The notes: generated from the letters alone by a model not told the origin. Shown: positions 38,216-62,947, counted from the first letter of the whole stretch. The stretch is 63,642 nucleotides of DNA, filler included, from Octopus bimaculoides (GCF_001194135.2; 5 parts of 5 records of this genome joined end to end with filler, not necessarily neighbours in it), one strand, 5' to 3'. Translations and numbers: made by a program.

Positions 38216-38700
38216 ATTAGGGAATAAATTCCAAAACCTACAGGGAAAAATTCAATTCACCAATACTAAATCAAATTTTCCAATATAAAATATATGTATA
38301 TAATTTAAAGAAAAACCACTATTGAATAATTCAACAATGAAGAATTAAACTCATACCCTCCAGAAAGCAAAAATATCACAAAAACCTTATTCAAAAAATC
38401 AATAAAATACAAAAGAATAACTAGTAAATGGTATAAAATGACTACGCACGTTTCGTGGCTATATTTTCAAATAGATAACAACTAAAACCAATTCAATTAA
38501 TAATTCTATTAATAATCAAATCGATCTACAGTTAAATCTATTCAAACATATAGTCACTCGTCAGGTCTAAAATAAAAATATTAATAAAAAATCAATGTAC
38601 GTAATGTAACTTATACTAAATATCTAAAAAAAATACTTGTTTTAACAATAAATAAATGATCGAAAAACATTTAACAATATTTCTTAAAATAAATACAACT
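38216..38700 (-). mobile_element. PLE pseudo-LTR / retrozyme-like element ending in (TTA)n
   Basis: Contains the hammerhead motif at 38440-38567 and runs into the (AAT)n tract at its 3' end. The 5' boundary is approximate. Confidence 0.55.
38440..38567 (-). ncRNA. Type I minimal hammerhead ribozyme with long stem II
   Basis: GAC, CTGACGA, GTGACTATATGTTTGAATAGAT...ATCTATTTGAAAATATAGCCAC, GAAA, CGTGCG, TA, GTC. All core positions are canonical. Confidence 0.8.
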
Positions 38701-39249
38701 TATCTTATCGAAGAATTGCTGTAAACAGTATTTTTTATTTCGTTTATTTGTGAAATACAAATATCTTTCTTTTCATTATTTAATTTTAAAATTGAGCAGT
38801 AAGAAGTTATGTAGCTTCTTTCGGACAACAGAGAGTGTACACTTTAAAGATCCCGAGCTTGCAGTAGCAAAAATATACGTGAGGAGGACGATGCCTGTGG
38901 GTGTTCTAACCGCTCTTTTCCGAAGAATGAATTTCACTGAGACAATATACACCACATCGAAAGAACGGCTAGAAGACTAGCTAATTCTCACCAACATGCT
39001 TTAATATTTGACTGAAAAAGGCGGTTTCTTCTTCACACCTCTTTTACTGTTACTACAGCGTGAAAACTGCATCTCTCTGAACTGGCCCACTCGATATATC
39101 TGTATCGTCTCGTTTGGTCATACTAACTTATTCAACTTCAAACTCCACAGTGCTCGTTATAATTTATTGGCAAATTTACAGCCATTTGGAGACCGGTCCC
39201 TAATTGAGGCTTACTTACAGATACTGACATATTGAAAAGTTCGAGATGA

Positions 39250-39382
39250 ATGTCGAACTTATCAAATGCATCTGTCATGTTGGGTCTGCATATGTATCGA
39301 TATAATAATATAGATTTAATCAAAAGATTAAATGTGGTACTTAAAATGTTTGAGGCAGCAGAACAGCGGCATAGTCAAGATG
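39250..39382 (+). CDS. Putative first coding exon of unidentified protein
   Basis: ATG...GAT G/gtatgt. Encodes MSNLSNASVMLGLHMYRYNNIDLIKRLNVVLKMFEAAEQRHSQD, ending in phase 1. Confidence 0.5.
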
Positions 39383-40902
39383 GTATGTTTTCTTCTCTTA
39401 CTCTTGTTTTTTGCACACATCTACAAAATGACTTTCTAAAATGAAATTCCATTATGCAACTGAGGAGTACATTTTCATTGTACATTTTATGTAGTGTTCT
39501 CACTACATGAATAAATGGAGCTTGTACGAAACGTACGTACTGCTATAACCTACTGAATTGTTGTTGCTTTTCTTCAAATATGTATCGATATATACAGACG
39601 CGCGCGTGCGGGGTAATTTCTGCAAGGAAAAAGATTGACTTGAAAGTTTCGTCTTGTTTTCCTTTATCAGTGTCAGATGAAGCTAAGCAAGCTAAAACTT
39701 TAAAGTCACTGTCAACCTTTTCCTTGTAAAAGTTAATAATTATCTACTCTATACAAAGTATTGAGTAATTCTTCAGTTAAATATAAAATTGCTTAATATA
39801 TAACTTGATATCAAAATAAACAATTCACACACACATTGATGTTATGCATAGTGTGAGTAAATATGTATACATANNNNNNNNNNNNNNNNNNNNNNNNNNN
39901 NNNNNNNNNNNNNNNNNNNNNNNNNNNNNNNNNNNNNNNNNNNNNNNNNNNNNNNNNNNNNNNNNNNNNNNNNNNNNNNNNNNNNNNNNNNNNNNNNNNN
40001 NNNNNNNNNNNNNNNNNNNNNNNNNNNNNNNNNNNNNNNNNNNNNNNNNNNNNNNNNNNNNNNNNNNNNNNNNNNNNNNNNNNNNNNNNNNNNNNNNNNN
40101 NNNNNNNNNNNNNNNNNNNNNNNNNNNNNNNNNNNNNNNNNNNNNNNNNNNNNNNNNNNNNNNNNNNNNNNNNNNNNNNNNNNNNNNNNNNNNNNNNNNN
40201 NNNNNNNNAATAATATTTTATAGTATATTATGTTATACTATATTATATTATATTATATTCATAGTATATTATGTTATACTATATTATATTATATTATATT
40301 CATAGTATATTATGTTACATTATAATATAAATAAACTACTGGATTGTCATTTGTATCTCTCTATTTAATTTATATGTATGTGTGTGTATGTATGTGTATA
40401 TACATATGTGTATACATATATGTATACACATATATGTATATATATATATCTGTAAATACATATATGTATATATATATGTGTGTCTGTGTGTGTGTGTGTG
40501 TGTGTGTAGTACACACACAAACACAGACATATCTACATAAATACACACCGTACATGCATATACATAGATACATATGCATAGCTAAATATAATATTGCTGT
40601 TATATTTAACACATACACTCACTCACACACACACACACACACACACACACATACACTCATAGTACAAACAGAACCACGCACATACACTTTTGCGTGCGTG
40701 CGTGCATGCTCGCGCGTGTATGGAATGTGTATCTGTGTGTGTCTAAATATATGTATGCGTATATATATATATAAATTAGGTGAGTGATTAACAGGATCCT
40801 CGTTAGAATTTATCTATTTAAAATTGATATTAGTTGTAGATTATTACGGTCCCTCGGAGATCTCAGACATTTCTGCATACTCATTAATTATTTTCATCAC
40901 AG

Positions 40903-40945
40903 TTCAAGAGTACTTGTTAGAATATGGTGTTCACTCTAAGGAAAA
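40903..40945 (+). CDS. Putative internal exon (43 nt, phase 1 to 2)
   Basis: ttattttcatcacag/TT CAA GAG...GAA AA/gtatgt. Encodes (V)QEYLLEYGVHSKE. Confidence 0.5.
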
Positions 40946-41059
40946 GTATGTCAGAATAATAATAAGGAAATTTATTTGTTTGGATATTATAAAATTCCTG
41001 AAATGAGCATTAAATAAAGTCGTCAAAGTCACAACGGACAGCGTTCATTCTCTTTACAG

Positions 41060-41114
41060 TGCGGCTAGAACCCTTAAAGATCGCGTTCAATTGACAACCA
41101 CATATCCCACACAG
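41060..41114 (+). CDS. Putative internal exon (55 nt, phase 2 to 0)
   Basis: ttctctttacag/T GCG GCT...ACA CAG/gttatg. Encodes (N)AARTLKDRVQLTTTYPTQ. Confidence 0.4.
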
Positions 41115-60252: not shown

Positions 60253-60262
60253 TATATATATA

Positions 60263-60452
60263 TATTAGAAACAATAATAATCAGGTACTCAGATGTTTGG
60301 ATGGTTGTAGATTTACAGATTTTTATTCATATGTCATATGTTTTATTAAAAAAAAATATTTTTTTATTATTAAATATGTGACATATGAATAAAAATCTGT
60401 AAATATACAACCATCCAGACATCTGAGTACTTGATTATTATTTTTTCTAATA
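60263..60452. mobile_element. Near-perfect hairpin MITE
   Basis: tcaggtactcagatgtttggatggttgtagatttacagatttttattcatatgtca is mirrored by tgacatatgaataaaaatctgtaaatatacaaccatccagacatctgagtacttga. Confidence 0.85.
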
Positions 60453-60584
60453 TATAATTCCTGTACATCACCTCCAAACCTTCCAATATATATATGAGAC
60501 TCAAGACTATTGAAAAGGTTGCAAGACGCAACGAAAATTTTAGGAAAATGAAAATAAGAAATAAGTGGAAATTTTACCGGTGAG

Positions 60585-61440
60585 TTAAATAACTGTTAGA
60601 AACAAGAACGCTAGTTTACAGGGAGCTGTTTAGGGAGAGAGGTTATGAACTCTATACTAAGAGTTTAAATTAAGCAGAAAAATCTAAAAGTTAATAATAA
60701 TGGTAATAAAAATCTTTTTTGTAAATCGAAGGAGAAAGAGAGAGAATCCAATGAATTCTTTATATACTACTCATTGTGTAAATAAACGTTTATGAGGAAG
60801 GAAAATTAAAGATGGATTATAAATATAATTAATTAACCATAATATTGTATCATATTAAGTTACGGTAATTAACCTAAATAAATGGCAATACAAGGTACAA
60901 AACTATAAACTGATGAAAAAATAAGAATAAACATACTTACGATGACAAAATCGATAGTATGTACGTAAATATATACAAGTATACTTAAAACTCTACGAAT
61001 ATAAATTTATCGGGGATAAACTTGCTGAACCAACTAGAGAAAAAGAAAGAGTATAAACAACTGGCGTTGGAGTTAGATACAATTGCTATTTAAGATAATA
61101 TTATAATGTTATTATTCTCATTGTTGTTATTGTTATTATTATAAATGTAAAAATAATTTTATTATTATTATTATTACTATTATTGTCTAAAGCTAAATAA
61201 AAATAAATACAAAGTGGGGTGTTGTTCATACCACATGTAAAGTGGCTGTCAACTAGTGAGTATGTTGGTAGGTAAAAAAAATAATAACTAAAATTAGAAA
61301 AAAGATGAAATTAATGAAACGATTTTTATTACCATTATTATTAACTTTTAGATTTTTCTGCGGTTCATTATGTCTTCTTTTAGTTTAAACTCCTACAGCT
61401 CCCTGTAAACGAGCGTTCTTGTTTGTAACGGTCATTTAAC
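60585..61440. repeat. Pair of ~135-bp inverted repeats
   Basis: 60585-60720 is the diverged reverse complement of 61320-61440. Confidence 0.75.
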
Positions 61441-61508
61441 TTATCTATATAGTGTTATTACTCGTACGTAACCTTAGCATTTAGCGAAAGTTTTGCATTT
61501 GTAATATG

Positions 61509-61598
61509 GTTCCCTGACGATGAATTTATGTGTATATACCAGCATCTCTCACTTCTTTGGAGTAGAGTGCACATAATTTTTGAAACATATGTAGGAAT
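61509..61598 (+). ncRNA. Type I minimal hammerhead ribozyme with long stem II
   Basis: GTTCC, CTGACGA, TGAATTTATGTG...CACATAATTTTT, GAAA, CATATG, TA, GGAAT. The 10.1-11.1 pair is U-U. Confidence 0.7.
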
Positions 61599-62947
61599 TA
61601 AAGGAACTTATTGATTATATGCGTTTTGCTCCATTTATTATTATTCTTTATATCTACTCAAAATACATCACATTAAAATGGAATTTCTACCCATTAACCG
61701 GGTATGATATCCCAGTTTTTGTGTGTTTTTTGCTATCCTGGTAACTATTAACATATTTGCATTATCGAAGTTTTACAACCAAGATAATATTGATATATAC
61801 ATAAATTAATATATATATATATATATTGGTTGAAAAAATGTAAAGAAAAAGGAAGAAAAATGCCTTCGTTTCGCATAGTTTAATATTTTTTTATATAAAT
61901 ATATACATATTAAATGGGTGTTGTAAAATCCCAACCGGTTTTCGCTATTTAAATTAGCTTTTCAAGGGGTATTGTGTAGTGATTAATTCGCATGATGAGG
62001 GGCTTTCGCCATCTTGGTTGTATGAAAAATAAGAAAGGATTTAGAGAGTGAATCAAGGGAGGTAATGGGTGTCANNNNNNNNNNNNNNNNNNNNNNNNNN
62101 NNNNNNNNNNNNNNNNNNTTAATTAATTAANNNNNNNNNNNNNNNNNNNNNNNNNNNNNNNNNNNNNNNNNNNNGCGCGCACACACACACACACACACAC
62201 ACACAGGTGTGTTTAAAATTTGTTTGGGGGATCTGTGTATTATTCACTTGTATACTTGTCAATGTTGTACTTGCCTAGTTCAACACGACACACTCTGCGA
62301 TTGTTGAACCTGCTAGAAATAGCAGCAAAATCTTTGTGAAATGACACACACCTGTCTTAATGTATTTTTGGGAGTTCAAAATTCCTGGAGGGTGAAGAAA
62401 AAAAAATGGGGGAGTGTAGTTAAGACTGAAATACTTTTGATTTGATTACATGTCAACGGACCCAAGCCTAAACGTAATTATATTTATTATAAAAAGTGCA
62501 ATAGAGTTCAAATCCCACCAAAGTCAACTTTGCCTTTCATCTTTCTTGGGTCAATAGAATAGCAGTAAAGTACTGGACTTGGTGTAATTGACTAACCTCC
62601 ACCCTCTCCTCAGAACTGCTGGTCGGGTGCCTAAATTAGTAATCATTAAAAGGTGTATATAAAATAAATGAATTAATCGGATTGGATCGCATCAATTATA
62701 AATAGAAACTGAAAATATTTCTTGTGTGTCAGAATCACTGGAATTCATGTTAACATTCTATTTATCAATGCTATAAGCTTTCAAAACAGCTATTTTTAGA
62801 TTTATATCATCATTGAGGCTACAAATACATTACGGGTATGCTACTTTCCATAATTTCCCGTCTTCTCTTTCAATGAGGCTTATTATTATTATTATTGTTA
62901 TTATTATTATTATTATTATTATTATTATTATTATTATTAGCATGTTG

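Follow-up and report, generated by a model that had tools for sequence, protein, structure and literature searches.

Three predicted hammerhead ribozymes with an extended stem II, probably from the 3' ends of Penelope-like elements, in DNA of Octopus bimaculoides

Hammerheads of Penelope-like elements and the octopus motifs

Penelope-like elements (PLEs) of the Hydra clade, which is defined by a CxCx5C linker and by CxxC and CxH motifs, have their GIY-YIG endonuclease at the C terminus (Craig et al. 2021, PMC8557442). The published Hydra families, including Hydra-1_Obim, insert at (TA)n and have, within a T-rich 3' end, a sense hammerhead ribozyme with a short stem I, a palindromic stem III and a UA cleavage site; inverted 5'-truncated arms are a further trait of the clade. 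Their stems II measure 3–7 bp with loops of 3–10 nt, and the distance from the cut to the element end is 30–153 nt in 23 of 24 families and 355 nt in one (median, 79 nt). The same source calls the role of the PLE ribozyme unclear. Metazoan PLE hammerheads, as described by Cervera and de la Pena (2014, PMC4209133), have type I topology, CUGANGA and GAAA cores, a U-rich upstream flank, a palindromic helix III and predicted activity as dimers, and occur mostly as single dispersed copies; the helix II termed 'larger than usual' there is 7–8 bp, and the descriptor in the supplement is capped at a 7-bp stem II and a 10-nt loop 2, that is, about 25 nt. Here we describe three predicted self-cutting RNA motifs (E1, E2 and E3) that resemble these ribozymes but have a stem II domain of 61–103 nt. 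They lie in a 63,642-nt stretch of DNA from Octopus bimaculoides (GCF_001194135.2; hereafter, the window), which is ~10% gaps and otherwise microsatellite-rich animal DNA.

E1 (38440–38567, minus strand) is a type I hammerhead with a 3-bp stem I (GAC/GUC), CUGACGA (38564–38558), GAAA, the hexamer CGUGCG, which self-pairs only with one G-U, and a UA cut site (38444–38443). Its 103-nt stem II domain (38455–38557) is predicted to form a near-continuous rod, and a T-rich segment on the same strand (38217–38442) leads from the predicted cut to a (TTA)n microsatellite (38181–38216), the likely insertion target. E2 (49326–49452, minus strand), also of type I, combines a 5-bp stem I, CUGAAAA (49447–49441), GAAA, CAGCUG and UA (49332–49331) with a 98-nt stem II domain (49343–49440) of several helices with internal loops, and its element ends at (TA)22 (49076–49120), again a likely target. 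The third type I motif, E3 (61507–61600, plus strand), has a 7-bp stem I with wobbles, CUGACGA (61514–61520), GAAA, CAUAUG, UA (61592–61593) and a 61-nt stem II domain whose base is weak; from the predicted cut, a segment on the same strand (61594–61809) runs to a short (TA)n (61810–61826). The true end of E3 may sit ~20 nt earlier, near 61790. Judged by CUGANGA, GAAA, a U-H cut site and three helices, the type I core is exact in E1 and E3, and E2 has A8. The stems I are short, as in the hammerheads of PLE pseudo-LTRs (LTR, long terminal repeat).

A hammerhead descriptor allowing a stem II domain of 8–250 nt matched both strands of the window at exactly three places, E1, E2 and E3, while 200 local dinucleotide shuffles, run as a chance control, gave a mean of 0.065 matches, a maximum of 2 and no case with 3 (0/200). 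The next microsatellite followed the cut after 228, 211 and 216 nt, respectively; three random points would lie within 20 nt of each other with P ~3e-4. The three motifs are a real feature of this DNA. They are present as an initial annotation made from the sequence alone had described them, with all coordinates checking, and its ~215-nt spacing to microsatellites is borne out by these distances and their clustering. That annotation had also seen no primary-sequence identity among the motifs, and indeed none of nine comparisons of upstream, stem II and tail parts gave similarity (shuffle p 0.05–0.99). No fourth hammerhead with a folding stem II was present in the window at one core mismatch, and no tandem unit was found at the E1, E2 or E3 site. 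A compact hammerhead-like stretch seen by eye at 60508–60545 (plus strand), with a U3-A8 core, a 5-bp stem II and no good stem I, is probably degenerate or a chance match. A TAAT(A)TT-like stretch is seen at or shortly before the microsatellite in all three ends.

Folding of the stem II domains gave z-scores of -6.95 for E1 (strong), -2.38 for E3 (moderate) and only -1.49 for E2 (weak). The E1 domain reached -33.9 kcal/mol on the ribozyme strand versus -17.6 kcal/mol on the other strand, with 9 G-U versus 1 A-C opposition (p=0.011 at even odds); over all three arms the counts were 16 versus 8 (p=0.076), and five DNA inverted repeats of the window, taken as controls, had mixed G-U/A-C ratios. 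The 8-nt palindromes were predicted to form self-duplexes (-8.8, -11.1 and -7.0 kcal/mol for E1, E2 and E3, respectively) and no hairpin, in agreement with the dimer-type stem III initially proposed. Stem I was predicted to form in a short context only, being lost in E2 with 100 nt of flank (0.09) and in E1 and E3 (~0) already at 40 nt. None of the three hammerheads has an obvious loop-loop partner.

For comparison, a scan that admitted long stems II was run on 80 Hydra-type loci of metagenome contigs, the best of 390 confirmed. A sense hammerhead lay 74–379 nt past the endonuclease match in 47 of the 80 loci and a hammerhead anywhere in 57, and 63 of 65 hits were on the coding strand. Among 56 distinct hits, 42 had a UA cut and all had, by descriptor, a 6–8-nt near-palindromic stem III; locus L022 has the same CAGCUG-UA as E2. 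The stem II domain, however, was 10–29 nt in 54 of the 56. Two long hits (173 and 200 nt) were artefacts, one joining an upstream false core to a real short motif and the other lying inside an open reading frame, and the weak long candidates that a relaxed scan turned up in 33 loci, which either had a broken core or lacked a palindromic stem III, were left out of the count. Loci L037, L042 and L054 have a hammerhead on the strand opposite the coding one, which would fit inverted arms such as that of E2. In this comparison, E1, E2 and E3 are Hydra-like in anatomy in all but stem II length, which at 103, 98 and 61 nt also exceeds the 7 bp plus 10-nt loop of the published PLE descriptor, so that the feature singled out initially as unusual is unusual indeed. 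Unlike the published Hydra families, with their 3–7-bp stems II and median end distance of 79 nt, the octopus motifs also have end segments of 211–228 nt.

The motifs differ, too, from the described hammerhead of Hydra-1_Obim, which is short and lies 36 nt from the element end (PMC8557442), and six 11–12-nt probes from or near the E1, E2 and E3 motifs had no match in the supplement of that paper. A partial precedent of two motifs is given by spike-moss PLE-X1 hammerheads, marked there (File S2) as one that 'deviates from canonical structure', with a loop 2 of ~29–34 nt and a domain of ~50 nt; those elements are, in contrast, from a plant, lack an endonuclease and target 28S rDNA, and their hammerheads have a shorter domain and, as given in that file, no 6-nt palindromic stem III. 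The discontinuous CLEC2 hammerheads of mammals (reviewed in PMC2950038) likewise show that large inserts hide natural hammerheads from pattern searches, but there it was loop 1 or 3 in which inserts were looked for, and the ribozymes belong to 3' untranslated regions (UTRs) of host mRNAs; the octopus insert is in stem II of a retroelement ribozyme. In the full-text literature we found no report of a 60–100-nt PLE stem II or of these octopus motifs; that search did not cover Repbase or Dfam, and Lunse et al. 2017 and Arkhipova et al. 2017 may hold such variants. Rfam returned 82 matches in the window at E<=1, all microsatellite-driven miRNA or snoRNA noise and none a hammerhead, a miss that is expected because of the 61–103-nt insert in stem II.

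The E2 locus and its family

The E2 hammerhead belongs to an arm (49121–49630, minus strand) that consists of a T-rich UTR, the hammerhead and a ~210-nt end segment, the appearance of a 5'-truncated element 3' end inverted relative to a neighbouring endonuclease. The latter (49694–50089, plus strand) is a C-terminal GIY-YIG remnant of Hydra-clade type; its motifs, recognised by eye, are CxCx5C (CNCRVRENC), CxxC (CLLC) and CxH (CLH), followed by a stop codon, with no CCHH. The piece coding the CNCRVRENC linker (63 nt; 49631–49693, minus strand) is inverted at this locus. In contigs of other copies the linker is read directly before 49694 (loose ends at 49694 in X1 and X14), and 49693–49631 is therefore a local inversion. 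HMMER gave 3179 relatives of the endonuclease at E<=0.001, in agreement with the Atlas search; Pfam missed it and a word-based protein search gave nothing. The nearest named relative is an O. bimaculoides GIY-YIG protein (73% identical). A Hydra profile, which includes the close relative P0001, matched at E 2e-37, and the endonuclease matched all 80 Hydra-type loci of the comparison set.

In long relatives the endonuclease is C-terminal to a reverse transcriptase (RT), with RW[KR] and DK[TS] motifs both present in 18 of 19. This truncated E2 copy is without RT, and P0001, 89% identical, carries the upstream linker region. The second HMMER match, P0002, is a PKD-repeat protein and was dropped. 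Long Asn-rich expansions stand ahead of the CxCx5C linker in the octopus-type relatives P0001 and P0003, so that in this lineage the protein linker has grown as well. A metagenome scan queried with P0001 gave no relative.

The upstream end of the E2 arm has an inverted counterpart with 42/42 identity at 52428–52469 (plus strand); this match enters a 100-N gap (52470–52569) and likely starts the direct-orientation 3' end of the same insertion. Because of this match, and of a layout with inverted 5'-truncated arms as described for PLEs (PMC8557442), the simplest reading, though not proven, is that the E2 arm and the endonuclease are one insertion with an inverted 5'-truncated arm. The E2 hammerhead sits on the inverted arm, and a direct copy would fall in the gap. 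A reading of E2 as an antisense ribozyme was dropped given the inverted linker and the 42-nt match. The same applies to a Naiad, a type with an N-terminal endonuclease and no canonical hammerhead, as the endonuclease here ends in a stop codon and is C-terminal to the RT in relatives. E2 is most likely the 3'-end hammerhead of a Hydra-clade PLE, and the PLE origin proposed initially is supported for this motif by the adjoining endonuclease and the inverted match.

Two raw RNA runs (626 and 405 reads) and two contig sets (866 and 1232 contigs) were aligned to 49109–50300 at 80% likeness, with 49498–49607 skipped as repeat; variants refer to the 40 visible of 239 variant rows. A T>C change at 49442, found in 264/264 RNA reads and nearly all contig depth, restores CUGAAGA (G8), and the A8 core change is therefore private to the E2 copy in the window. 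A 2-nt insertion (GC or GT) at 49348, in 134/213 and 74/125 reads, lengthens the basal helix of stem II. Apart from these, none of those variant rows touches the core or stem I, nor GAAA, the palindrome or the cut site. Among five well-supported letter changes in stem II, three fall in predicted loops, one keeps a wobble and one breaks a terminal G-U at a helix end. Long stems II also occur in E2-family copies under a second species label: one contig covers 49350–49496 without a gap and differs at 21 letters, and one loose-end row combines the same palindrome with a UC cut site. A subfamily with a different stem II interior (48 and 28 loose-end reads at 49348) has 30 visible letters that stop short of the 5' arm, and its stem II is therefore long too.

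Summed contig depth was ~1e4–7e5 across the 3' end and fell to 1e3–6e3 for the greater part of the endonuclease and to ~50 at the joint specific to this locus, which, although summed depth is not a copy number, points to a high-copy family mostly of truncated ends. RNA covered both strands of the E2 hammerhead about equally, which fits passive transcription, and no splice joint was found in the E2 end segment. Four loose-end rows of the RNA runs X21 and X22 (34, 32, 26 and 12 reads; 104 in total) pass the TA junction into one shared non-TA sequence, in whose 30 visible letters a 7-bp hairpin with a C/A-rich loop is seen by eye. This sequence may be a PLE tail or the next tandem unit; elsewhere in the window it did not occur beyond chance (1 match at 2 mismatches; 24/100 shuffles). 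Many reads also have a longer pyrimidine tract at 49217–49227, and this tract together with the reads past the junction means that the cut-to-end distance is not fixed inside the E2 family.

Origin and proposed working of the long-arm hammerheads

We consider it probable that E1, E2 and E3 are 3'-end (pseudo-LTR) hammerheads of PLEs, of the Hydra clade in the case of E2 and probably also of E1 and E3, and that the 61–103-nt stem II is likely a tolerated arm. This reading builds directly on the anatomy and the statistics, on the endonuclease and the inverted match adjoining E2, and on the canonical core with long stem II in other copies of its family; E1 and E3 were assigned by the anatomy of their ribozymes, by flanks rich in T and by ends at microsatellites. 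Since the hammerhead core is built from the base of stem II alone, and no obvious loop-loop partner is present, a tolerated insert is the simpler reading.

In the proposed working, an RT-endonuclease protein would bind the element RNA and then nick (TA)n or (TTA)n DNA. Reverse transcription would begin at a set site inside the RNA, ~210–230 nt downstream of the ribozyme, and this start site, not the ribozyme cut, would set the microsatellite junction. Copying would proceed upstream through the ribozyme and usually stop early, yielding many short 3'-end copies and inverted arms such as that of E2. The ribozyme, with its 3–7-bp stem I and 6-nt palindrome, is predicted to be near-silent as a monomer, and its cleavage after UA would require either the pairing of two copies by way of the palindrome or help from the element protein. 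Loop 2 could then grow, the core needing the base of stem II alone. A model for such a mechanism is the anole Poseidon element PAc (Frangieh et al. 2024, PMC11167929), for which reverse transcription is described to begin within the RNA, downstream of the hammerhead at a stem-loop that is AC-rich, and to make an optional tail, and cleavage to be protein-assisted and dispensable. PAc shares with the octopus motifs AT-rich targets and, in the RNA-seq reported there, the lack of ends at the cut; it differs in belonging to another clade, in its compact hammerhead, which overlaps the start codon, and in start sites ~85–92 nt past the cut. Since the hairpin behind the E2 junction recalls the anole AC-rich stem-loop, the TA junction was taken to mark a putative priming site.

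Several observations weigh against this explanation. At 211–228 nt, the end distance is above all but one of the 24 published Hydra values, and the model does not account for its being so alike in three unrelated copies. Searches around E1 and E3 (Hydra profile; Pfam on 8 nearby frames; Atlas, no credible match) gave no coding remnant, so that their probable clade is read from ribozyme anatomy alone; such a lack is expected if the copies are 5'-truncated. A single E2 insertion needs ~2.3 kb of microsatellite-rich DNA between the stop codon and 52428, versus 74–379 nt in relatives, no read or contig spans both arm and endonuclease across the skipped repeat, and the 42-nt identity could alternatively come from a separate young copy. 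In addition, no two-sided (compensatory) change in E2 stem I or II was present among the visible variant rows, and no RNA end maps to the predicted cut.

An addition to the PLE reading, unlikely though worth weighing, is that selection maintains the long stem II as a functional domain (a binding site for the element protein, folding switch or dimer-timing spacer) shared, like the lengthened end segment, by a cephalopod PLE lineage. What speaks for such a role is that the long arm and the 211–228-nt end segment come together in three unrelated copies. The G-U excess of E1 would agree with it, as would the placement of the E2 stem II changes, largely in loops, at a kept wobble or at a helix end, and the gap-free arm length under the second species label. 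The G-U excess is, however, not significant over the three arms, and a T/G strand bias could yield it; the arms have neither length, shape nor sequence in common, the E2 subfamily has another stem II interior, and the E2 arm folds little better than shuffles. The initial suggestion that several families conserve this geometry draws on three single copies, with family data for E2 only. The microsatellite junctions and palindromic stem III of the same proposal were borne out, and are already published Hydra-clade traits (PMC8557442).

The initial annotation had further proposed that self-cleavage may set where a ~215-nt RNA has its 5' end, and that this RNA integrates at microsatellites. In this form the idea is not supported: each of the three copies retains its entire ribozyme along with sequence upstream of the cut, the E2 arm extending ~300 nt upstream (to 49630). 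A broader version, in which the motifs are non-autonomous retrozyme-like units whose ~215-nt or circular RNA integrates at microsatellites, we regard as improbable. In its favour, 3'-end sequence far outnumbers the endonuclease in both contigs and RNA, RNA reads past the TA junction could enter a next tandem unit, and animal retrozymes are reported as PLE derivatives (bioRxiv 10.64898/2026.07.22.740005). Animal non-LTR retrozymes (PMC7229834; bioRxiv 10.64898/2026.07.22.740005) are alike in having type I hammerheads within PLE-related, non-coding, high-copy repeats, but are defined by tandem units and, in their canonical type, by loop 1-loop 2 contacts, whereas single copies are seen here, E2 beside an endonuclease. 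A depth step in X1 lies at the bin border at 49348/49349, where subfamilies diverge, and the bins are too coarse to reveal a step at the cut. Over E2 the two RNA runs gave no pile-up of read starts or ends, a weak test with fragmented RNA-seq, and none of nine listed joints was a back-joint at the cut, although the library type is ill-suited to circles; the distance to the end, moreover, is not fixed in this family.

Slightly less probable still is that the arms are DNA fold-back insertions into loop 2, of the type of miniature inverted-repeat transposable elements (MITEs), and that the ribozymes are dead. Several DNA inverted repeats of 120–440 nt do occur in the window, stem I is lost from the predicted fold once more flank is included, E3 has a weak stem II base, and the E2 copy of the window lacks G8. 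Against this stand the sharing of the arm by an amplified E2 family with canonical core, the lack of a target-site duplication and of a second copy of any arm interior in the window, and the much better folding of E1 on the ribozyme strand. Chance matches in AT-rich repeat DNA are the least credible explanation and are largely refuted already: stem I of E1 is only 3 bp, and the descriptor was relaxed to admit a long stem II, but the three matches compare with 0.065 expected, all have a microsatellite at 211–228 nt, and reads of the E2 family restore the canonical core.

The 3'-end position in PLEs, the palindromic stem III and the TA targeting were known already, and what is new is the 61–103-nt stem II. 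At this length, standard searches (Rfam and the published descriptor) would miss such hammerheads, a natural form that here occurs in a high-copy, transcribed repeat family. If active, long-arm hammerheads would widen the known shape range of natural hammerheads and offer a test system for the purpose of the PLE ribozyme. Two cephalopod Naiad families are flagged HHR_half_core, with the second core half 35–50 nt away (PMC8557442 File S1), and could hide long-arm hammerheads. The strongest version of the argument, which we hold to be rather doubtful, is that a cephalopod PLE lineage made loop 2 a selected, structured domain of 60–100 nt with a matching ~215-nt spacing to the priming site, active as dimers and present in thousands per genome, so that Rfam and the published descriptor would leave animal hammerhead counts too low and some apparently ribozyme-less PLE families (e.g., HHR_half_core) would hide one.

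Other features of the window

Repeats within the window were searched by self-BLAST. The sequence upstream of E3 (61317–61441) has an 80% identical inverted relative at 60583–60718 (minus strand), and no hammerhead follows this relative on its own strand. Two further remnants show that the Hydra clade is common in the window. A second Hydra-type endonuclease remnant (58173–59044, minus strand) has in-frame stops and a ~400-nt insert between linker and GIY-YIG part, and no hammerhead was found 3' of it; its linker resembles Hydra-1_Obim by eye. An old, heavily broken Hydra-type RT and endonuclease remnant (55358–56081, plus strand) begins right after a (TG)n run.

An (AAT)n run is followed immediately by an exon of a cyclic-nucleotide phosphodiesterase catalytic domain (PDEase_I, Pfam E 1.9e-6) at ~54160–54330 (plus strand). 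It is the one exon identified in the window, and in view of it the elements may be intronic. The DNA fold-back (MITE-like) inverted repeats that served as controls are at 60259–60456, 25481–25921, 43397–43718, 5217–5988 and 39614–39735. Open frames at 1452–1856 (plus strand), 30498–31025 (minus), 33855–35643 (minus) and 37024–37374 (plus) have, by eye, the look of transposase, LINE-type (long interspersed nuclear element) endonuclease or RT remnants, which we presume them to be.

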